This document shows positions 4,989 to 46,420 of a stretch of 64,000 bases of DNA, one piece after another. A program made the position numbers and the translations under genes. The notes beneath the pieces are model-generated. The model did no database searches. It was not told where the DNA came from and worked only from the letters and a program-made list of their open reading frames with translations. The DNA comes from a phage. Positions within the stretch are counted from its first letter, which is position 1. The number at the start of each line of letters is the position of its first letter. Location of the stretch: the sequence record PZ151149.1, one strand, 5' to 3'.

Positions 4989-5020
4989 TTTGATTCTCCG
5001 TTTGTTGTCTTGATGGGAGT

Positions 5021-5049
5021 ATCTTACTACTCCCTTTAATCATTGTCAA
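5021..5049 (-). promoter_or_regulatory. sigma70-type early promoter cassette
   Basis: TTGACA (5049..5044), 17 nt spacer, TAAGAT -10 (5026..5021). Confidence 0.6.
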
Positions 5050-14522: not shown

Positions 14523-14555
14523 CTTGATACTCCTTAGTTGTTTTGGTATGGGAGT

Positions 14556-14584
14556 ATCTTACTACTCCCGTGATATGCTGTCAA
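14556..14584 (-). promoter_or_regulatory. sigma70-type early promoter cassette
   Basis: TTGACA (14584..14579), 17 nt spacer, TAAGAT (14561..14556). Confidence 0.65.
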
Positions 14585-14742: not shown

Positions 14743-14780
14743 TTGATTCTCCTTAAAGTGTATTTCGTTTCGATGGGGGT

Positions 14781-14809
14781 ATATTACTACCCCCGTTATT
14801 CACTGTCAA
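14781..14809 (-). promoter_or_regulatory. sigma70-type early promoter cassette
   Basis: TTGACA (14809..14804), 17 nt spacer, TAATAT -10. Confidence 0.6.
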
Positions 14810-15028: not shown

Positions 15029-15061
15029 TTTGATTCTCCTTTGTTTCGTTTCGATGGGAGT

Positions 15062-15090
15062 ATCTTACTACCCCCGTTATTCAGTGTCAA
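15062..15090 (-). promoter_or_regulatory. sigma70-type early promoter cassette
   Basis: TTGACA (15090..15085), 17 nt spacer, TAAGAT (15067..15062). Confidence 0.65.
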
Positions 15091-33163: not shown

Positions 33164-33283
33164 TACAGTTGGTTAAAACATAACCAAAACGAAGAAAGAT
33201 CTTTAGAATAATAGAAAATTTGTTTCGGTTAAAAAATAGTCAGTGCCTACGGCACGTCGCGAAGCGATATTTTGTTAACATTC

Positions 33284-34885: not shown

Positions 34886-37800
34886 ATGGCAGATTTAAGC
34901 AGAATCCAATTTAAACGCACTAGCACTAAAGGTCGTAAACCTGATGCTAGTACGATGTATCCGGGGGAATTAGCAATCAACCTTGCGGATCAATACATGT
35001 TTACTAAAAATGATTCGGGGACTCTCATCAATTTAAGTTGTCCTCCGGTGTATAACCGTGACGTTGTAATGGCGGGTAAGGTTAAAGGAAATGATTATAT
35101 TTTAAGCAAAACCGCTAATTATTTTGAAGACCAAACCGCGCGAGATCTTAATTATTTTGGTGCGTTTCGACCGAATAATGCTGATGGTTGGTCTAACTTG
35201 ATTCTGAACATTCCTCACCCCAGCGGTAAAGCACACGGTCGCGGGTTTGAATTTCAATATGGTTCTAGTTCCTCTCAGGTTAAAACCTATGGCTTTGATA
35301 AAGATGGTGCTAAGCGATTCAGCTTTCGCATGTATCATGAAGGTGATAAACCTACCCCATCGGAATTGAACGTTTACAGCAAACAAGAAGTTGATCGCAT
35401 GTTTGTTAAAAACGTTAAAATGTCAACTCCTAGCAGTGCAACAGGGTATTTCAAAATTGCTACCGCTATGATCCCACAGCAAGGAAAAATGGTATTTATT
35501 CGTATCTATGGTGGTAATGGATACAACGTTAACTCTCCGACTCAAGTTGATTTTGTAGAAATCGTGATTCTTGGTGGGAATGGAAATCCTAAAGGTGTTA
35601 CTGTTGCTGCATATCGAAGAAATTCTTTAAATCAACTTGAAGTGTTTGCTATTAATACATCCGGTGACAACTATGATATCTACGTAAAATATGGTCGGTA
35701 TACCGATAATGTTATTGTAGAATTTGGTAAAACGGTTGGTGTTAATTTAACTGTTCATGATGTTCCAGATTTTTCGGAAGCAAAACCTGCTGGTACTACC
35801 TTTGAAGGTCGTATTATTACCATGTTTAATACTGAAAATAAACGAGGTTCTTTGTATTTCGATCAAAACACGCAAGAGACTTATGATATTATCAGTTTGT
35901 GTGACTATTCAGGTACTGGCAAAAAATATATTCGTAAATTCCGCAGTGGACCAAGCTACGCAATCTGGCATGAAACTGTTCAAGACGACACATATCGTCT
36001 ATCAACTGGTACTACCGATTCTAACGAAGTTCTACGAATCACAGGTCGTACCATGTATACCGGAAAACTGGTAGTGGATGCAGGAAGTAATGCTATTCGT
36101 ATGCTGCGACCTACCGGACAAAGTAACTATCTGGAATATGTGGATAATCGCAACGGTGCTAGCAAGCGTCAAGGATGGATCGGTTTTGGTAGTATTGAAA
36201 ATGATAACTTCCAATGGTATAGCGACGTAGGTAAAAACTCATTACAGTTAGATACTACTGGTCAAATATCATTAACCACAGGTGCAACAAAAATTGTATA
36301 CGCTAATGGTCAATATGTATCGGCTAACTCTGATGCGTATCGTATGATCTACGGTAATTATGGTGCATTCTGGCGTAATGATGGTGCTAGCGTTTATCTT
36401 CTGTCTACTGCTGAAAATGACAAATTTGGTGCTTGGAATACCTACCGACCGTTTATCTATAATTTAGTATCTGGAGACGTTAAATTAGGTGGTACTAACA
36501 CCGCATGTTGTTTGTATCTGGGAATTGATGGTAGTACCCGTATCGAGGATAAATTAGTTTTCAGGGCGGGATCTCGTCAATCAATGGACTACTTAGAATT
36601 TGTTCATTGGGGGGCAAGCAATACAGGTCGAAATAACGTTTTAAGTCTTCGTGACTCAAAAGGATTTTTAGCAGAATTTGAGCGTAAAGGTGATAACACC
36701 ATTCAAAATACATTCTTCGGAAGATTTAAAGTCAATGGTGATTCTAACGCTATTACCATTAATGCTCCTACTGATTCTGATGCTGTTTATGTGAAAGGTA
36801 CTTGTAATGATGTAGATAACTGGTATATCGGTAAAGGTGGTGCTGGTAATGGATTAGTTTTTTGTAGTTATAAGACTAATGCGGCTGTTCATCTCACAGA
36901 TAATGGTGAGGTTTTATTAGCCCCACAAAACACCGCAATTGTTAACATCAATCGCGACCGTATACACATCAACGGTACACAGTGGGTGGCAAATCAGCCA
37001 CATGGCTGGGGTAATCAGTGGCTGTCCGAAGCTCCTATATTCGTTGATTTTGGTACTGGTGTTCCATATGATACCTATATGCCAATCATTAAAGCCCGTA
37101 GCCAAACTGCTGGCGGTTATGCAACTAAGGCCGATTTTGGTATATATCGTCGTGGTGCTGGTGATAATTGGGGTTGGGGTGATGCTGTTATTCGTGTCGG
37201 TTCTGCCGAAAGTGCCGATTCTTCACATCCAAATGCTAGATTCATGTTCCAAGCAAATGGAGATTTTAGAGCACCTGCTGGCCTCCGTGCTGGTGTTAAC
37301 TTGGGTGTTGGTACTGATCCTGCATTGGGTGGACATTCTATTGCTATCGGTGATAATGACACTGGCTTAATGTGGGGTGGTGATGGTCGTATTAACCTGC
37401 TTGCTAACGGACAGCATATTGCGTCATGGGGTGTTTTCCATCAAGAACATCCTGGGCTATGGTCTGTCGGTGCTGGGTTCTGGACAGAAGTCGATAAAGC
37501 GATTATTTCTCACGGTCACTTGATTCAGGCGAATGACAGCTATTCTACATATGTTCGTGACATTTATATCCGTTCGGATATTCGCGTGAAGAAAGACCTA
37601 GTTAAATTTGAAAATGCATCTAAGACACTTTCAAAAATTAACGGTTACAAATATCTTCAAAAGCGCGGGACCAATGAAGACGGTAGCGAACGTTGGGAAG
37701 AAAACGCTGGTTTGATTGCTCAGGAAGTTCAAGCTATTTTGCCGGAATTGGTTGAAGGCGATCCAGATAGCGAAAACCTTCTTCGTTTGAACTATAACGG

Positions 37801-37942
37801 TGTTGTTGGTTTAAATACTGCTGCGATCAACGAACACACCGAAGAAATTGCACTTCTTAAAGAAGAAAATAACCGTCTGAAAGAAGAAAATAAAATTCTT
37901 CATGATCGTCTTGCTGCAATTGAAGCAAAATTATTTGGTTAA
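34886..37942 (+). CDS. 37: long tail fibre distal subunit (gp37-like) with C-terminal intramolecular chaperone domain (1018 aa)
   Basis: N-terminus MADLSRIQFKRTS ... GELAINLADQ; C-terminal about 122 aa with SDIRVKKD motif, GLIAQEVQ and coiled coil typical of S74 self-cleaving chaperone domains. Confidence 0.8.
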   Translation: MADLSRIQFKRTSTKGRKPDASTMYPGELAINLADQYMFTKNDSGTLINLSCPPVYNRDVVMAGKVKGNDYILSKTANYFEDQTARDLNYFGAFRPNNADGWSNLILNIPHPSGKAHGRGFEFQYGSSSSQVKTYGFDKDGAKRFSFRMYHEGDKPTPSELNVYSKQEVDRMFVKNVKMSTPSSATGYFKIATAMIPQQGKMVFIRIYGGNGYNVNSPTQVDFVEIVILGGNGNPKGVTVAAYRRNSLNQLEVFAINTSGDNYDIYVKYGRYTDNVIVEFGKTVGVNLTVHDVPDFSEAKPAGTTFEGRIITMFNTENKRGSLYFDQNTQETYDIISLCDYSGTGKKYIRKFRSGPSYAIWHETVQDDTYRLSTGTTDSNEVLRITGRTMYTGKLVVDAGSNAIRMLRPTGQSNYLEYVDNRNGASKRQGWIGFGSIENDNFQWYSDVGKNSLQLDTTGQISLTTGATKIVYANGQYVSANSDAYRMIYGNYGAFWRNDGASVYLLSTAENDKFGAWNTYRPFIYNLVSGDVKLGGTNTACCLYLGIDGSTRIEDKLVFRAGSRQSMDYLEFVHWGASNTGRNNVLSLRDSKGFLAEFERKGDNTIQNTFFGRFKVNGDSNAITINAPTDSDAVYVKGTCNDVDNWYIGKGGAGNGLVFCSYKTNAAVHLTDNGEVLLAPQNTAIVNINRDRIHINGTQWVANQPHGWGNQWLSEAPIFVDFGTGVPYDTYMPIIKARSQTAGGYATKADFGIYRRGAGDNWGWGDAVIRVGSAESADSSHPNARFMFQANGDFRAPAGLRAGVNLGVGTDPALGGHSIAIGDNDTGLMWGGDGRINLLANGQHIASWGVFHQEHPGLWSVGAGFWTEVDKAIISHGHLIQANDSYSTYVRDIYIRSDIRVKKDLVKFENASKTLSKINGYKYLQKRGTNEDGSERWEENAGLIAQEVQAILPELVEGDPDSENLLRLNYNGVVGLNTAAINEHTEEIALLKEENNRLKEENKILHDRLAAIEAKLFG

Positions 37943-37980: not shown

Positions 37981-38277
37981 ATGGGCTATTGGGTAAGTAA
38001 TGAACAAGGCACTAAAATAGATGCTGTAAAATGGCATGTTTTTGATATTCCTAATGGATATGTCCCCGGTCGTGCTGGTGTTGCCGTTTTGCGGCATACT
38101 GCTAATGATGTTTGGGGTGATATTCATATTTCCGTTGACGGTGTGGTCGCCGCGCGTCGTCGTGGTGGTGGGGATTGGGGATTTACGGTTAATGCGTTTG
38201 TTCCTGCTGGATGTACTGTCACCTTTGGTCATGGTGGTGGCGGTGGTATTGAATACTTTAAATTTATGGAGTTTTAA
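37981..38277 (+). CDS. glycine-rich small protein, paralog 1 (98 aa)
   Basis: MGYWV ... VFDIPNGYVPGRAGV ... RRGGGDWGFTV ... GHGGGGGIEYFKF; first of three tandem paralogs. Confidence 0.5.
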   Translation: MGYWVSNEQGTKIDAVKWHVFDIPNGYVPGRAGVAVLRHTANDVWGDIHISVDGVVAARRRGGGDWGFTVNAFVPAGCTVTFGHGGGGGIEYFKFMEF

Positions 38278-38279
38278 TT

Positions 38280-38585
38280 ATGGCTGGATGGGTTGCGGGA
38301 AGAATGGCTAATGCTATTAGCATTTATGCTAATGGTGGGTGGTTTGGTATCCCTAATGGTTGGGTGGCTGATTCATGCGGTATTGTGTCTGTTCATGCCG
38401 AAGCAGTTGGCGGTGGAGGTGACTTGGACGCCGAATTATATGTAAACGGTACTCTCGAATCAGGTCATCACGCTGGTAATGCCGGAAGTTGGGGAGCTAG
38501 TTCTTTAGTTGGTGTTGGCGCTACTGTCAGTTTTAGCATTGGTAAAGGAAGTTTACATCACTTCCAATTTAGGAGAATGCATTAA
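38280..38585 (+). CDS. glycine-rich small protein, paralog 2 (101 aa)
   Basis: WFGIPNGWVADSCGIV ... AVGGGGDLDAELYVNG; ATG 2 nt after previous stop. Confidence 0.5.
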   Translation: MAGWVAGRMANAISIYANGGWFGIPNGWVADSCGIVSVHAEAVGGGGDLDAELYVNGTLESGHHAGNAGSWGASSLVGVGATVSFSIGKGSLHHFQFRRMH

Positions 38586-38887
38586 TGGGATATTGGGTGT
38601 ATGGCGTTTTAGACAATAAAGCCGGTAAAGCGAATCAGGGATGGTTTGATATTCCTAACGGGTGGACGCCTGACGCTTTCGGTACGGTTTCATTTGGTGC
38701 TAGTTCTGCTGGTGGTGGCGGTGGTGACTCAGAATTGCTTTTGCATGGCTTTTGTGTGTCTGGAAGTCATAAGGGTCATGATTGGGGACAGATCCATTCT
38801 TGTATTGTGCCGCAGGGAGTAACGATCACGGTAACTACAAACAGGGGTATTTCCCATCTTCGTTATAGACGCTTGAGCAACCGTTAA
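38585..38887 (+). CDS. glycine-rich small protein, paralog 3 (100 aa)
   Basis: MGYWVYG ... WFDIPNGWTPDAFGTV ... SAGGGGGDSELLLHG; TAATG overlap with paralog 2. Confidence 0.5.
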   Translation: MGYWVYGVLDNKAGKANQGWFDIPNGWTPDAFGTVSFGASSAGGGGGDSELLLHGFCVSGSHKGHDWGQIHSCIVPQGVTITVTTNRGISHLRYRRLSNR

Positions 38888-39213: not shown

Positions 39214-39870
39214 ATGCAAGTTTCTGAAAAAGGGAAAGACTTTGCTATCTCAAATGTCCTGCGCGCTATTTTCACAACTAAAAGCACGGAGTTGCTCGTA
39301 CTTCGTGTTTTTGCTGCCGTCGTGTTGTCTATATTAGCATTTGTCGTTTATAGTAAAAACGAGTTATTTGCGCTTTATAAAGAGACTCGTTATGAGACTT
39401 ATGCTCACGTTCTCCAGGTAGAGAAAGACCGCAATTTTGATAATGCAGCACAGGAGCAGTTACAGATAGTTCATGTGTCGGCTGATGCCGATTTTTCTGC
39501 TGTTTTTAGTTTTCGTCCGAAAAACCTAAACTATTTTGTTGATTTGGTGGCATATGAAGGAAAGCTACCGCATACAATCGATGAAAAAAATTTAGGCGGA
39601 TTCCCTATCAATAAAACGAGTGAAGAATATCGTAGGCATCTTTTAGGTAAATCCTATTTTACCGATAAAGATTTCCAGTATATTCCATCAAGAGAAAAGA
39701 AATTAGAGAGTATCGATATAGGGGTTATGTATTCTTGTCCTATATTCAATCTCGACAATGTCTATTCTGGTAGTATCTCCATTGCATGGAAGAATAAACC
39801 GGATATTGACATTGAGAATTTAGATACTCTTTGCAATCAATCTGCCAGAATCCTCGGAAGGATTAGATAA
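39214..39870 (+). CDS. t: holin T
   Basis: 218 aa (same as T4 T); single N-terminal TMD; long blocks matching recalled T4 T (LQIVHVSADADFSAVFSFRPKNLNYFVDLVAYEGKLP, YSCPIFNLDNVYSGSI, ARILGRIR). Confidence 0.85.
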   Translation: MQVSEKGKDFAISNVLRAIFTTKSTELLVLRVFAAVVLSILAFVVYSKNELFALYKETRYETYAHVLQVEKDRNFDNAAQEQLQIVHVSADADFSAVFSFRPKNLNYFVDLVAYEGKLPHTIDEKNLGGFPINKTSEEYRRHLLGKSYFTDKDFQYIPSREKKLESIDIGVMYSCPIFNLDNVYSGSISIAWKNKPDIDIENLDTLCNQSARILGRIR

Positions 39871-39876
39871 CTTAAA

Positions 39877-39908
39877 GGGGAAGCCTTTCGGCCTCCCCTT
39901 CTTTTTAT
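39877..39908. terminator. bidirectional terminator between convergent genes
   Basis: GGGGAAGCC-TTTC-GGCCTCCCC hairpin followed by TTCTTTTTAT on plus; minus-strand gene ends at 39905. Confidence 0.55.
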
Positions 39909-40153
39909 TGGCGCATAGAAGCCCCTGAATCGCATTTTGACGCTGTATGATGAAAACATGTAGCGTACCAGTCATCTGCTTGTTTGTCTTCGTCAGAAAA
40001 CGCGTAATTTCGTTGTACGCCGTTTTCTACTTTGACCAGTGCAATAGCTGTTTCTGGAAGATCAATCAATCGAACAAAATCACCATCTTCCCACTCTACA
40101 CGAGCAATATCATAACCCATCTCAAAATATACAATCGCTTGCTCTAATTTCAT
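39905..40153 (-). CDS. hypothetical protein (82 aa)
   Basis: ORF with ATG at 40153. Confidence 0.45.
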   Translation of the reverse strand: MKLEQAIVYFEMGYDIARVEWEDGDFVRLIDLPETAIALVKVENGVQRNYAFSDEDKQADDWYATCFHHTASKCDSGASMRQ

Positions 40154-40506: not shown

Positions 40507-40839
40507 TCAAATATTGCCGTAAATGTTTTCGGTCATGGTTCTTGCTTCTTCCAGCATTTTGGTCATGCTCATAGTGTAGTTGTTATCTCGTACAGACTTA
40601 ATAACGACAAGCAAGGAATCTAGAAAAACTTTATAAGCTCTCCATTCTACTCCATTGCCGAACAGTTTTAGATCTTCCACTTTATCGATCAGATAACCTA
40701 AAACAGATAGCGCCTCGTTTACTTCTTCCGTTACTTTACTGCCACTAAACCAGATAGGGTAAAGCTGGATTGACAGCGACCGCGCTGCCTCTTTCAATTC
40801 GGTCGCTTTCCATGATTCATATTTGTCATAATTAAACAT
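40507..40839 (-). CDS. hypothetical protein, ENIYG paralog 2 (110 aa)
   Basis: ATG at 40839; C-terminus EARTMTENIYG. Confidence 0.45.
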   Translation of the reverse strand: MFNYDKYESWKATELKEAARSLSIQLYPIWFSGSKVTEEVNEALSVLGYLIDKVEDLKLFGNGVEWRAYKVFLDSLLVVIKSVRDNNYTMSMTKMLEEARTMTENIYGNI

Positions 40840-41786: not shown

Positions 41787-42065
41787 CTATTTTCGGTTAT
41801 ACTTCTGCCACTTTCGGTAATACTGCTTGTAATATTGTTTAATGTTTGGTGGTTCGTCACTATACATGTTATCGACCATCATGTCAATAAGACCTTCCGG
41901 TGTTTGATAATTACCCGCTCTGATAAGTTCTTTAATCAAAAGATCTTGTGGTTCTTTGTATTTGACAATAACAACTGTCGTTTCTGCCTTTCCAATTCCG
42001 ATCCTGTCGTTAGCTCTCATCGCGTCCCACCAGTCTTTTGTAATCTTCATGTTATTGAATTGCAT
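41787..42065 (-). CDS. hypothetical protein (92 aa)
   Basis: ATG at 42065; basic C-terminus. Confidence 0.45.
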   Translation of the reverse strand: MQFNNMKITKDWWDAMRANDRIGIGKAETTVVIVKYKEPQDLLIKELIRAGNYQTPEGLIDMMVDNMYSDEPPNIKQYYKQYYRKWQKYNRK

Positions 42066-42068
42066 AAT

Positions 42069-42869
42069 TTAACCCTTCTTATATTCGCAAACATATTGAG
42101 TACCATAATCATAGCTAATGCGGCCTTTCTCGATGACCTCAAAGCGGATTTCATCGTTTTCCCCTACCCACATTTTGTACTCGTTGAAGTATCCTGCTAC
42201 ATCCGGTTTGCTCATACCAACAACCATATTTTTATATTGTTTGCTGCGTGTCAGATTTGATTTAAACACTTCGCGCTCATCAACATATACGAAAGAAGAC
42301 AATTCACCTTCGGTCATGGTCATTTTCAGCTTGCCGCCCTTGTTACCATAAGTAGAGTTGCCATACAATGGATCTTTGCGGCTGTCTGTTTCAATACCAT
42401 CAATGATTTTCCATGTAAATTTTGCAATGCACTGATAAGTGATAGATCCAGAGATTTTCTCTTCTTTCTTCTGTTCTTCCACCACTTTTTCTTCCTGTTT
42501 CGGTTGTTCTTCTTCAACCTTCGCAGAAGTCTCTGAATCGCTTTCTGACTCGGTTTCTTCTTTAGGTAATACATTCATCAAGTTTTGGATTTGAGCGTTG
42601 TATACAGCCTCCAGTGGCTGAATCTGCCCGATATTGATCATTGTATCACGAACAGTTTTATTCCAGTTGCGTTGCTCTTGTTTCAGAGACGGATCAATCT
42701 TAACAGCTTGAACATATACTTCATGAAGTTTAGAATCCAGTGCGGAGATAGACTCATTAGCACAAATAAACTTCTCTGATTTGGTAGTGGCTTTAGCGCA
42801 ATCAAAGGACGCAGCGTTAGCACCGAAAGCAGTAGCAGAAAGAACGATAGCAGCGATAATGTTTTTCAT
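42069..42869 (-). CDS. secreted LprI/DUF1311-like protein (266 aa)
   Basis: Signal peptide MKNIIAAIVLSATAFGANA; then FDCAKATTKSEKFICANESISALDSKLHEVY resembling the lysozyme-inhibitor LprI N-terminal domain; acidic linker; own promoter. Confidence 0.55.
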   Translation of the reverse strand: MKNIIAAIVLSATAFGANAASFDCAKATTKSEKFICANESISALDSKLHEVYVQAVKIDPSLKQEQRNWNKTVRDTMINIGQIQPLEAVYNAQIQNLMNVLPKEETESESDSETSAKVEEEQPKQEEKVVEEQKKEEKISGSITYQCIAKFTWKIIDGIETDSRKDPLYGNSTYGNKGGKLKMTMTEGELSSFVYVDEREVFKSNLTRSKQYKNMVVGMSKPDVAGYFNEYKMWVGENDEIRFEVIEKGRISYDYGTQYVCEYKKG

Positions 42870-42902
42870 AATATATTCCTCAATGTTTTTCTTGATGGGA
42901 GT

Positions 42903-42931
42903 ATCTTACTACTCCCTTAATCCGGTGTCAA
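42903..42931 (-). promoter_or_regulatory. sigma70-type early promoter cassette
   Basis: TTGACA (42931..42926), 17 nt spacer, TAAGAT (42908..42903). Confidence 0.65.
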
Positions 42932-43151: not shown

Positions 43152-43180
43152 GTGATTCTCCTTTCGTTTGGTATGGGAGT

Positions 43181-43209
43181 ATCTTACTACTCCCGTTTCT
43201 TTACGTCAA
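43181..43209 (-). promoter_or_regulatory. sigma70-type early promoter cassette
   Basis: TTGACG (43209..43204), 17 nt spacer, TAAGAT (43186..43181). Confidence 0.6.
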
Positions 43210-43216
43210 CTGGTTT

Positions 43217-43732
43217 TTAGAAATTTTTCGCTTCTTCTTCGGTCATCATAACCGCGCATTCGTGCATAACTTTGAAAACCGGATCAATCATGTCGAATGC
43301 TTCGCGAGACAGTTTACGAGAAGCGATTTTGATTGCTTCAACGTCTTCTACTACAGGAACAAAAACAGTTTTCAGTTCATCGAGCACGGCAGCTTCTTTT
43401 TCATTCAGGAAGATTCCAGCGTCGTACAGTGCAACTTCGATAACATTAACTTTAACCATTTTTATTTCCTCCAGTTCGTTTCGGTATGGGAGTATAATAC
43501 TACCGATGACCTTTGGCGTCAACTGCTTTTTATTATTTTCGTGAAAATTTTTCGTTGCCTCTAGGTTCTTTTCGACCTTCATCCATTCCGCGTATTCTTG
43601 CGCGGCTACTTTCGGATTTAGTCCGTCTTCGTACATTGCTTCAAGTAATTCTTCGTCGGTGGGCTTATACCCTAAATAAGCCTCCACCTGATTTTTCCAA
43701 ATTTTATACCAGTTCATATTATCACCAATCAA
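43217..43732 (-). CDS. hypothetical ORF (171 aa) containing an internal promoter; C-terminal 81 aa probably also made separately from ATG 43459
   Basis: Continuous ORF; promoter/UTR/GGAGGAAATAAAA SD cassette lies in-frame at 43465..43522 just before internal ATG (MVKVNVIEVALYDAG...). Confidence 0.4.
   Translation of the reverse strand: MIGDNMNWYKIWKNQVEAYLGYKPTDEELLEAMYEDGLNPKVAAQEYAEWMKVEKNLEATKNFHENNKKQLTPKVIGSIILPYRNELEEIKMVKVNVIEVALYDAGIFLNEKEAAVLDELKTVFVPVVEDVEAIKIASRKLSREAFDMIDPVFKVMHECAVMMTEEEAKNF
43494..43522 (-). promoter_or_regulatory. sigma70-type early promoter cassette inside ORF 43217..43732
   Basis: TTGACG (43522..43517), 17 nt spacer, TATTAT -10. Confidence 0.55.
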
Positions 43733-44703: not shown

Positions 44704-46050
44704 TCAACCCTTCTTAAGTTCTTTAAGATCTTTCTTATATTCCTTCATTGCGGTCGTCTTTGTCCAATACTCATATTCACTATGATGTTTATCGGCATCT
44801 TTGACCAGTCGATCATACTCTTCTTGAGTAACGCTATACAATGGCATAGAAACTAGCTTATCGGCGTATGGACGCAGTTTTTCATGTCCATTGATGGATT
44901 GCATTACCTCGGCCTTTTTCTTTCCCTGTAGCTCGATTTCGCCCTTAATTACGCGATCGATAAATTCGGCTTTAGCCATTGCATAATTGTATGCTTCCAG
45001 CGTTTCCGCTTGCATCAATTCAATGCGTTTATCGACATACCCTAATCGGATTTCGACGAATCGACGGATCAGATCGCTCGCTTTCTCGAATACTTCTACT
45101 AAACCACGTTCGTTAACTACTACGATATTCTGGGCTACTAACTGCGTTAGTTTAAAATCCTTCATTATTTGCTCATGTCGAGCGGATTCATCTTCGCTTT
45201 TGAAATAATCGCGTTTCAGTGTTACTTCAAATCTGAATCCGTCCTTAGAGCAACGATCATTATATGAGACAATCAGATCTTTTTCTTCCAGTGCATCCAG
45301 TACCGCTACATATTCTTCACGGTCGAACTTATAAGGAACTTCTGATATTGTCAGTTTAGTCTTGCCGTTTAGTTCATATGTACCCTCAAGAATCACACCA
45401 TCGCGATCATCTCGCGGGATAACTTTACCAGTGAATTTTGGGAATTGAACACTAGGTTCTTTATCCAGTTTTCCGGCAAGTGCTAGCTCTGTGCATTCAA
45501 TAAGGCTTTCCAGTGAATGCGGTAAAATGTCAGTTTTATACCCTGTAGCAATACCACTAATACCATTAGCCAATACCATTGGCACAACCGGCAAGTAGAA
45601 CGCTGGCGGGATGTGTTCCAGATCTTCGTGCTTAGGTGCGCAATTCATATCTTTATAGATTTTAAAGAAGTTTTCATGCACACGAGCAAAGATATAACGT
45701 GCCGCACCTGCTTTCTGGACTAAACGCGATCCGAAGTTACCTTGACCGTCAAGCAGTGGAGTATTATTGCTCCATGTATTCGCCATGAGTGATCCGGCTT
45801 CTACGGCATTAGTTTCCCCGTGGTGATAACCCAACTCAGCGACACCAGATCCAATATCTGCCATCTTACGGAATTTCTTACGGTCGCCTTTACTCTTTTG
45901 CAAAGCACATTCCATAACAAAGCGTTGCACTGGTTTAAGTCCATCCACCAATTGAGGAATCCCGCGTTCCTCGGCAGAATAGATCGCATATTCCTTAGCT
46001 TCATTATGTACAATGCTTTCAAGGCTACGGTAAGTAACTGATTTATTCAT
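44704..46050 (-). CDS. 52: DNA topoisomerase II medium subunit (GyrA-like)
   Basis: About 448 aa (T4 gp52 442 aa); GyrA-type breakage-reunion sequence; ATG at 46050 with GAGGTGA SD (track start is GTG). Confidence 0.85.
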   Translation of the reverse strand: MNKSVTYRSLESIVHNEAKEYAIYSAEERGIPQLVDGLKPVQRFVMECALQKSKGDRKKFRKMADIGSGVAELGYHHGETNAVEAGSLMANTWSNNTPLLDGQGNFGSRLVQKAGAARYIFARVHENFFKIYKDMNCAPKHEDLEHIPPAFYLPVVPMVLANGISGIATGYKTDILPHSLESLIECTELALAGKLDKEPSVQFPKFTGKVIPRDDRDGVILEGTYELNGKTKLTISEVPYKFDREEYVAVLDALEEKDLIVSYNDRCSKDGFRFEVTLKRDYFKSEDESARHEQIMKDFKLTQLVAQNIVVVNERGLVEVFEKASDLIRRFVEIRLGYVDKRIELMQAETLEAYNYAMAKAEFIDRVIKGEIELQGKKKAEVMQSINGHEKLRPYADKLVSMPLYSVTQEEYDRLVKDADKHHSEYEYWTKTTAMKEYKKDLKELKKG

Positions 46051-46057
46051 CTTCACC

Positions 46058-46420
46058 TCATACACGCTTACAAATCACATTCTTTACTTTATCAGATTTA
46101 TCAGCCCAATCCAATAGCCATTTTAACGGAAGGATTGAAACAATAAACGGGGCAGCAATCAAAGCAAACATGATACACCGGATAATCAGGAAAGCGCAAG
46201 TAACAAAGCTAGCGATCGTGATCCCGACAAAACAAAATACCATAGAAAACAGAGTAATGATATAGAAAGGCCAGAATACCCACTCCCGCATCTTAACGCC
46301 TTTGTATTCTCTGAATTGCTTAAAATCTACAAACAACTCTCGGATAGACGCATACAGGACCGAAAAATCATCTTTCATTGCTCTGAATGAGCAATCTTCT
46401 ATTTTAGAATGACCTAGCAT
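46058..46420 (-). CDS. membrane protein (120 aa)
   Basis: Two long hydrophobic segments (WVFWPFYIITLFSMVFCFVGITIASFV, IMFALIAAPFIVSILPL). Confidence 0.5.
   Translation of the reverse strand: MLGHSKIEDCSFRAMKDDFSVLYASIRELFVDFKQFREYKGVKMREWVFWPFYIITLFSMVFCFVGITIASFVTCAFLIIRCIMFALIAAPFIVSILPLKWLLDWADKSDKVKNVICKRV

Follow-up and report, generated by a model that had tools for sequence, protein, structure and literature searches.

A predicted periplasmic LprI-like protein with a polymorphic C-terminal barrel in Krischvirus phages and Escherichia coli prophages

LprI-domain (DUF1311) proteins have been described as immunity proteins, or from immunity positions, for lysozyme-like effectors of type VI secretion systems (T6SS) that act in the periplasm (PMC9796082, PMC12981562, PMC12135965). 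In Pantoea, LprI-domain proteins with signal peptides occupy immunity positions beside lysozyme-like T6SS effectors (PMC9796082), and the DUF1311 protein Etsi4 rescues Escherichia coli from the periplasm-acting effector Etse4 (PMC12981562). The LprI protein of Mycobacterium tuberculosis consists of a DUF1311 domain followed by an MliC lysozyme-inhibitor domain (PMC7933661), and phage T4 encodes Spackle, a helical, disulfide-bonded protein that is made early, acts in the periplasm as an inhibitor of the gp5 tail lysozyme and is the basis of exclusion (PMC7677548). Here we describe a gene for an LprI-like protein in a stretch of phage DNA of 64,000 nucleotides (record PZ151149.1), the whole of which is hereafter called the window. 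The open reading frame (ORF), read directly in this 64-kb sequence at 42069..42869 (-), begins with ATG and encodes 266 amino acids, exactly as in the initial annotation. That annotation had also spoken of a lytic phage, and nucleotide identity to relatives bears this out: the ~2-kb region around the gene is 96-97% identical to Escherichia phages PHB13, MIZ2/3/6, GEC-3S and E26 and 92-95% identical to RB49-type phages, which identifies the source as a Krischvirus (RB49/Phi1/GEC-3S-like; Straboviridae), a virulent T4-type 'pseudo-T-even' phage.

Essentially every one of the 57-59 Krischvirus records contains the gene, and its counterparts in relatives (RB49ORF260c, phi1p262 and BN201_0263) are each annotated as hypothetical. 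A DUF1311 resemblance of RB49ORF260c was already listed in 2006, with E = 0.2 (PMC1524935), and homologues carry the name 'LprI-like' in UniProt and NCBI; the domain annotation and the promoter class discussed below are therefore previously known parts. What appear to be new are the barrel fold, the two-module, LprI-like layout in which the tether is long, the cassette polymorphism with its abrupt mid-gene limit and the sharing of the gene with E. coli prophages, and full-text literature searches returned no paper on the LprI-like Krischvirus protein. The function that we tentatively place first is that of a periplasmic, immunity-type antagonist of incoming peptidoglycan-degrading enzymes, whose barrel would supply or switch specificity.

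Sequence features strongly support a Sec-exported, soluble periplasmic product in which a helical, disulfide-containing LprI-like domain is joined to a barrel by a flexible acidic tether of ~40 residues. Residues 1-19 (MKNIIAAIVLSATAFGANA; 42813..42869 (-)) form a signal peptide, with K2, a 14-residue hydrophobic core (mean Kyte-Doolittle value 2.24) and A-N-A at -3/-1 preceding ASFDC; the predicted signal peptidase I cut falls after ANA. The AxA/ASFDC junction (the slash marking the cut) is invariant in homologues of only 39-44% identity from Klebsiella phage Marfa, Aeromonas phage AS-sw and Salmonella phage SSU5. A lipobox (L-[AS]-[GA]-C) is absent, the cleavage region reading FGANA/ASFDC. 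The helical N-domain that follows (residues 20-100; 42570..42812 (-)) contains a Cys24/Cys36 pair and a Y..QR.W motif. Its residues 24-76 match Pfam family PF07007 (LprI) with 25.6 bits against a gathering cut-off of 22, and the distant homologues of Marfa (22.4 bits), AS-sw (30.0) and SSU5 (26.2), scored alone, all lie above the cut-off, so that by profile score the protein belongs to the LprI/DUF1311 family at the Pfam threshold. Across these distant phage homologues C24, C36, Y52, Q66, R67, W69 and R74 are invariant (a ...Y...QR.W..R motif). The remainder of the domain is predicted to be helical at low confidence (AlphaFold predicted local distance difference test score, pLDDT, ~55); its best PDB profile match is weak (6AR7, E 0.2), and a word-index search with the N-domain alone gave no matches. 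Between this domain and the barrel lies an E/K/Q/P-rich acidic linker (residues 101-139; 42453..42569 (-)) with 15 D+E against 7 K+R, an isoelectric point of 4.4 and a length that differs between homologues; it is predicted to be disordered (pLDDT <50) and holds the left boundary of the divergent cassette described below. The cleavable signal peptide, the cysteine-containing LprI/DUF1311-like domain and the acidic linker of the initial annotation all recur in this analysis, the cleavage as a prediction from Sec-type features and a junction kept in distant homologues.

The conserved half of the protein shows few replacements. The signal peptide and N-domain have 95-98% nucleotide identity to the window in all copies, and between phages the N-domain differs at 5-11 synonymous but only 0-1 non-synonymous codons, a ratio indicative of purifying selection. 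This constraint fits one alternative, in which the protein would be a modulator of host peptidoglycan hydrolases that binds or stabilises lytic transglycosylases or other autolysins and so keeps or remodels the wall during the latent period. The model for such a role is Salmonella ScwA, a periplasmic LprI-domain protein that is stabilised by disulfides, was acquired horizontally, and alters the levels of several hydrolases (MltD, Slt and AmiC among them) but leaves lysozyme resistance as it is (PMC7933661). The LprI domain of ScwA is C-terminal, however, with no barrel, and ScwA acts on host hydrolase levels. Because the hydrolases of E. coli are conserved, this alternative also gives no reason for five deeply diverged barrel classes, and it leaves the acquisition of the gene by a prophage as a moron unexplained; we regard it as distinctly unlikely.

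The C-terminal domain of the initial annotation is confidently predicted to be an eight-stranded beta-barrel (residues 140-266; 42072..42452 (-)). AlphaFold2, given an alignment of 15 C-terminal domains, returned eight antiparallel strands with a pLDDT of 90 and a predicted template modelling (TM) score of 0.83. Over all barrel classes the sole invariant residues are Cys147, Gly158 and Cys261; in the predicted barrel Cys147 lies in the first strand and Cys261 in the last, a position that argues for a stapling disulfide between the two and, through it, for a periplasmic location. By sequence the barrel is an orphan: a phmmer search of 1.84 billion representatives returned only its own cluster, and neither Pfam nor a PDB sequence search gave a meaningful match. 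By fold it matches the MliC/PliC family (PhiA and PliC; PDB 7DPY, 4MIR) as well as designed, lipid-binding and outer-membrane barrels, and when the full-length model was searched against the PDB with Foldseek, the only matches, to barrels of lipocalins, TbpB and fHbp, were not significant (best E 4.7e-3).

PhiA and PliC are flattened eight-stranded barrels of the MliC/PliC family with the same terminal disulfide (PMC8334348). The predicted phage barrel resembles this family, including Brucella PhiA, in being a flattened, antiparallel, eight-stranded, periplasmic barrel with a disulfide between its first and last strands. Membership was considered and rejected, since the phage domain lacks a sequence, profile or SGxxY match and shares only the predicted eight-stranded barrel and the cysteine pair in the terminal strands. 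A parallel in overall design is M. tuberculosis LprI (Rv1541c), which is likewise exported and has the same module order, an N-terminal PF07007 domain and then a small eight-stranded barrel. The mycobacterial protein is a lipoprotein, whereas the phage protein has no lipobox, and the phage barrel, which has neither an MliC match nor SGxxY, is polymorphic and stands on an acidic tether of ~40 residues.

This polymorphism became apparent in a comparison of 20 homologues from a 5.8-billion-protein collection, in which residues 1-106 are near-invariant and the C-terminal domain falls into discrete classes. At least five barrel classes, with 15-45% amino acid identity, were distinguished. With class A (this window, Phi1 and GEC-3S) as the reference, amino acid identity is 43-45% for class A' (metagenome contigs and an E. 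coli prophage), ~33% for class B (RB49), ~32% for class B' (metagenome contigs) and 15-20% for class C (JSE). Among isolated phages class A occurs in 11 records, class B in ~45 and class C in JSE, and the barrel of UPWr_E1 is 31% identical to class A; A' and B' stand at the same locus in Krischvirus-like metagenome contigs. At the nucleotide level the barrel is ~99% identical to the window within class A and 31-56% identical in the other classes, with flanks that are 95-98% identical. The edges of the divergent segment are sharp: blastn alignments to RB49, JSE and FL04 end in the linker at 42468..42456 and restart at 42099..42078, near the stop codon. These alignments strongly support an exchange of the barrel through recombination between two breakpoints, of which the first lies in the linker and the second at the stop codon.

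Phi1 (class A) and RB49 (class B) are ~97% identical across 97% of their genomes. Deeply diverged barrels inside genomes so similar indicate an old polymorphism that has been maintained and reshuffled by recombination, the pattern expected of an arms-race protein, and we read this half-gene cassette as a clear signature of antagonistic co-evolution at a previously unstudied locus. The cassette polymorphism is not general, as full-length identity among the Klebsiella Marfa-type homologues is 78-100%; among the homologues compared it is specific to the Krischvirus/E. coli lineage. The homologues of Marfa (L005, 1501..2259), AS-sw (L006, 1474..2193) and SSU5 (L007, 1501..2199) have the same signal peptide, LprI-like domain and linker, followed by unrelated C-terminal domains with a cysteine pair; two places in Aeromonas phage AS-sw match.

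The gene belongs to a leftward early block flanked by the holin gene t (39214..39870, Pfam Phage_holin_T) and the topoisomerase gene 52 (44704..46065), an interval that is one of the 'hyperplastic regions' of RB49 and Phi1 (PMC2839356). Its upstream sequence contains an early promoter cassette at 42897..42931 (-), in which the -35 hexamer TTGACA (42931..42926), a 17-nucleotide spacer and the -10 hexamer TAAGAT (42908..42903) of the initial annotation were all confirmed. A stem-loop with a 7-bp stem, GGGAGTA-GTAAGA-TACTCCC (42916..42897), overlaps the -10 hexamer, with a minimum free energy of -12.8 kcal/mol (z -2.4). Plain sigma-70 matches are not enriched in the region (16 found against 16.6 expected), but the composite TTGACA-N9-GGGAGTAGTAAGATACTCCC, of which the window has 6 copies, does not arise in any of 100 shuffles. 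The early promoter stem-loop (PeSL) class was defined in RB49 and Phi1 by sigma-70 hexamers with a stable stem-loop next to them or overlapping them, an AT-rich tract upstream, a location between the genes of a hyperplastic region and repetition in the genome; its members are strong promoters, with promoter and terminator activity shown for other copies (PMC2839356). All of these features are found in the promoter of the LprI-like gene, which on this sequence evidence fits the published class, and the GEC-3S record annotates the corresponding site as a promoter. A Shine-Dalgarno sequence, GAGGAA (42876..42881 (-)), was read 6 nucleotides upstream of the ATG. Five other copies of the same PeSL subtype occur in early regions of the window, at 5015..5049, 14550..14584, 14775..14809, 15056..15090 and 43175..43209 (all (-)), with the -10 hexamer within a GGGAGTA/TACTCCC hairpin; the last of these is just downstream of a 171-codon ORF.

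The locus therefore resembles the PeSL and ORFan cassettes of RB49 and Phi1 (Arbiol et al. 2010) in its typical PeSL with the stem-loop over the -10 hexamer and in its place in the t-to-52 hyperplastic region. It differs in its unit of exchange, which is half a gene with breakpoints in a low-complexity linker and at the stop codon, whereas in the published cassettes it is a whole gene between PeSLs. The published PeSL-mediated shuffling of whole genes would in this way be extended to exchange within a gene.

The gene also occurs outside Krischvirus. A 5-Mb E. coli chromosome encodes one homologue (P0019), and intact copies, always adjoining hicAB, are present in 26 of the 5,426 complete E. coli genomes. 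In these copies the 5' half is 94-96% identical at the nucleotide level to the phage gene. Six of the 26 have a C-like barrel; the other 20 match the first 371 nucleotides only, and the one of these that was examined, from strain 14EC017, is class A'. Similarity starts 6 nucleotides before the ATG, so that the PeSL is excluded. One copy keeps 69 nucleotides from the start of dn1, the next gene of the phage, and none keeps more; this remnant points to exchange with a Krischvirus-like genome. The prophage of strain 14EC017 ends with the gene, which there adjoins a truncated hicB, and this prophage encodes a tail fibre, capsid, portal, large terminase, Rha regulator and small-terminase-like protein. 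The copy there has its own candidate promoter, a Shine-Dalgarno sequence and a strong terminator-like hairpin, all predicted. Movement of the gene between Krischvirus and a temperate E. coli prophage is strongly supported by these comparisons, which also show that the predicted protein is kept without the rest of a Krischvirus genome. The 94-96% identity of the prophage copy shows recent gene flow between virulent T4-type and temperate phages.

A terminal prophage moron for an exported protein is a typical site of exclusion or lysogenic-conversion functions. The prophage copy suggests a lysogenic-conversion trait, with possible consequences for how well therapeutic phages work on clinical strains. 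Such a trait would also be the classic benefit of the prophage copies if the protein were an orphan immunity factor against bacterial competitors only, a shield for infected cells or lysogens against the muramidases of T6SS or bacteriocins, with no role between phages. T6SS immunity is the only role reported, by experiment or genomic context, for enterobacterial LprI-domain proteins (PMC9796082, PMC12981562). A virulent phage with a short latent period would gain little from such protection, and yet nearly every Krischvirus record has the gene; nor does a T6SS effector gene adjoin any copy. We therefore judge a role against competitors alone to be quite improbable.

If the barrel recognises a partner encoded by the phage itself, its class might be expected to vary with that partner. 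The window barrel is 100% identical to the barrels of GEC-3S, MIZ6 and ELT3, and the distal 400 residues of the window's gp37 are at most 70% identical to those of any phage in the collection; a tie between barrel class and the gp37 receptor-binding tip was accordingly rejected, as the same class A barrel occurs with unrelated tips. The distal part of gp37 (gene 34886..37942; distal part 36740..37939 (+)) has its nearest matches in Krischvirus UPWr_E1, G2248 and Tequatrovirus wV7-type fibres, a mosaic tip unlike that of the closest relatives.

The gp37 comparison bears on a reading in which the protein masks a receptor or channel, as T5 Llp or Cor does: an outer-membrane receptor, or a DNA-entry factor of the inner membrane, would be bound on its periplasmic side by the variable barrel, blocking further infections or sparing progeny from loss on debris, and the barrel classes would match different host surface proteins. 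Discrete allelic classes would suit discrete receptors, the long tether could span the periplasm, and the barrel resembles small phage protein and lipoprotein barrels (TM 0.60 with a lipoprotein of Erwinia phage Kwan). Both settings of the gene, early in a lytic phage with a periplasmic product and as the terminal moron of a prophage, are moreover typical of exclusion genes. But Llp and Cor are lipoproteins and the phage protein has no lipobox, barrel class does not follow the gp37 tip, and the conserved LprI-like domain is left unexplained, so that masking appears unlikely. Membership of the Spackle and Llp/Cor families was likewise rejected, there being no Sp homology, no lipobox and no co-variation with the receptor tip.

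A second candidate partner is the product of dn1, the downstream gene (41787..42065 (-); 92 residues, phrog_15915), whose ATG lies 3 nucleotides past the stop codon of the LprI-like gene. dn1 is itself polymorphic, with 51-93% identity across phages and at least three allele groups. With its conserved N-terminal half, its variable C-terminal half and a small gene close behind that varies too, the locus has the layout of a polymorphic toxin/immunity-like cassette, in which the C-terminal domain would be the effector and dn1 its cognate partner. The alleles of dn1 are nonetheless independent of barrel class, with several combinations: class B barrels occur with A-type dn1 (89-93%) in phages SSG23, SFHK24 and Ec_Makalu and with JSE-type dn1 in Brandy, KFS-EC and JK32, and a B' contig has A-type dn1 (90% nucleotide identity). 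dn1 was rejected as the cognate partner of the barrel on account of this independent assortment. In addition, dn1 has no signal peptide, whereas the barrel is predicted to be exported, and the E. coli copies retain at most 69 nucleotides of dn1. The allele tables already largely refute a toxin/immunity cassette, which we consider extremely improbable.

More broadly, we scanned for partners by comparing two genomes, Phi1 (class A) and RB49 (class B), by blastn with a threshold of 80% nucleotide identity. Eighteen windows fell below the threshold; these hold homing endonucleases, small ORFans, inh, gene 56 and a borderline 200-nucleotide window at the 3' end of the endolysin gene. The regions of gp5, t, rI and the spanin did not fall below 80% between the two genomes. 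This result weighs on the further possibility that the protein controls lysis timing by binding the periplasmic domain of the holin T or the antiholin RI, tuning lysis or lysis inhibition. The gene is ~2.2 kb from the holin gene t, and its product would be periplasmic and early, as RI is. The phage already has rI, rIIA and rIIB, however; with t and rI both above the threshold, the barrel polymorphism has no partner there; and the carrier prophage has no T-type holin nearby. Control of lysis timing is thus very improbable. The gp37 tip, dn1 and the Phi1-RB49 scan together yielded no co-varying phage partner, so that any target of the barrel probably lies outside the phage's own genome.

A target outside the genome is part of the antagonist function that we favour. 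Within minutes of infection, or constitutively in a lysogen, the protein would build up in the periplasm, where it would bind and neutralise peptidoglycan-degrading enzymes that come from outside. Candidate targets are lysozyme-like T6SS effectors and/or the tail lysozymes, of gp5 type, that superinfecting T4-type phages bring with them. The cell would thereby exclude superinfecting phages and resist lysis from without, a Spackle-like role. In this scheme the conserved LprI-like domain would be a generic immunity module, to which the swappable barrel adds a target specificity, or switches it, in the course of an arms race. Krischvirus gp5 has a Phage_lysozyme domain and the endolysin a Peptidase_M15_4 domain; the phage could afford a lysozyme inhibitor because its own endolysin would be an M15 peptidase, not a lysozyme.

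We judge an antagonist to be the most likely function from the immunity precedents for LprI-domain proteins, the parallel with Spackle, the combination of a gp5 lysozyme with an M15 endolysin and the failure to find Sp or Imm. By tblastn, no homologues of T4 Sp or Imm were found in Phi1, RB49 or the window; with Sp the only match in these three (E 0.02-0.05) lies inside gene 41, and no Krischvirus is among the matches listed of the 904 records with Sp matches. The early PeSL promoter, the arms-race pattern of the barrel, the intact prophage copies, which speak for a use to the cell in their own right, and a Tad2-like anti-defence gene in the same early block were also counted in favour. Like Spackle (gp61.3), the LprI-like protein is, by prediction, an early, periplasmic, disulfide-bonded helical protein of a T4-type phage with a signal peptide; unlike it, Spackle is a single, highly conserved domain of 75 residues without a polymorphic cassette, and the two have no sequence similarity. 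The likeness to Etsi4 of enterohaemorrhagic E. coli and to the orphan immunity genes of Pantoea hcp islands lies in the signal peptide, the LprI domain and the periplasmic location, and those proteins neutralise lysozyme-like enzymes injected by a contractile machine (PMC12981562, PMC9796082). They are encoded beside effectors in T6SS islands, however, whereas the phage gene lies in an early region or at a prophage end, with no effector nearby, and its product has an additional barrel.

Several observations weigh against an antagonist of this kind. The PF07007 match is marginal and in all four proteins covers only profile positions 1-71 or 1-72 of 106, or about two-thirds. The fold match of the barrel is generic, as Cap15, lipid-binding and outer-membrane barrels score equally well or better; none of the 15 barrels has a Pfam match to MliC (PF09864) at E up to 10; and the conserved SGxxY loop is absent from the barrel alignment, the 'SGSITY' of class A being an SGxxxY at the start of strand 1 that other classes do not have. 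Even within the MliC/PliC family, PhiA neither bound nor inhibited its proposed target in vitro (PMC8334348). We did not find literature that assigns the inhibition by M. tuberculosis LprI to its DUF1311 part, and ScwA, which has the LprI domain only, gave no lysozyme resistance (PMC7933661). Since M. tuberculosis LprI also has an MliC domain and ScwA alone gives no resistance, the name 'lysozyme inhibitor' is weak evidence of function, and the published evidence for the LprI domain alone is mixed (PMC7933661 vs PMC12981562). Barrel class shows no co-variation with the phage's own gp5, which is not below 80% nucleotide identity between one class A and one class B genome, so that any target of the barrel must be heterologous. 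Finally, a weak Spackle-like match accompanies the LprI-like gene in Klebsiella phage Marfa, and the two are thus not strict alternatives; the idea that T4-type phages have either Spackle or the LprI-like gene, never both, was considered and is not cleanly supported, given the weak Sp match in Marfa.

With these points set against it, and among the roles that the initial annotation had put forward (superinfection exclusion, control of lysis timing and protection of the wall), the comparative evidence still favours envelope protection or exclusion, because of the T6SS immunity precedents for LprI-domain proteins, the position as a prophage moron and the lack of any Spackle or Imm match. A bolder extension, which we offer as speculation of low probability, is a modular form of immunity with swappable specificity common to virulent and temperate coliphages. 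Each barrel would neutralise a different envelope attacker (rival tail lysozymes, T6SS muramidases or bacteriocins), and recombination in the linker would trade these specificities, making the system an inhibitor-side counterpart of polymorphic toxins. Krischvirus includes phages used in therapy (Phi1 and GEC-3S), and the T4 exclusion genes imm and sp were not detected there; the LprI-like protein offers a concrete, testable candidate for exclusion in phages in which Spackle and Imm homologues were not found. Should it prove to be an ordinary accessory protein with no phenotype, little would be lost, as the domain annotation is already in databases.

Other parts of the window hold further small genes, and PADLOC returned no matches. 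At the end of the early block of the LprI-like gene, beside the holin gene, an ORF of 82 codons (39905..40153 (-)) matches the Pfam Tad2-like family (Thoeris anti-defence 2) with 28.4 bits against a cut-off of 25, and a weak Tad2-like match is also present in related contigs; we regard this ORF as a candidate anti-Thoeris sponge on the strength of its profile match. Three tandem, glycine-rich, paralogous ORFs of ~100 codons (MGYWV..GWF.IPNGW..GGGG..) lie at 37981..38277, 38280..38585 and 38585..38887 (+), between gp37 and a 79-codon ORF and the holin gene, where GEC-3S and Phi1 have only the 79-codon ORF. They have no convincing PHROG match and may be tail-fibre accessory or adhesin-like genes.

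Two other genes vary among relatives. dn5 (phrog_9457; 40507..40839 (-)) is a polymorphic small early gene with ~71% identity to all five phages compared. The 171-codon ORF at 43217..43732 (-) looks mosaic: residues 1-84/98 resemble RB49, Phi1 and JSE (68-75%), residues 54/58-171 resemble GEC-3S and FL04 (89-96%), and its PHROG match is limited to the first 54 residues. Lastly, a sequence of ~75 nucleotides is repeated with 75-84% identity at several Krischvirus sites, including the gp35/gp36 spacer of the window (33169..33243) and positions ~62.5 kb, ~99 kb and ~149.9 kb of Phi1, and the same repeat occurs in E. coli prophage islands that carry the LprI-like gene (L017, 535-616; L019, 669-749).

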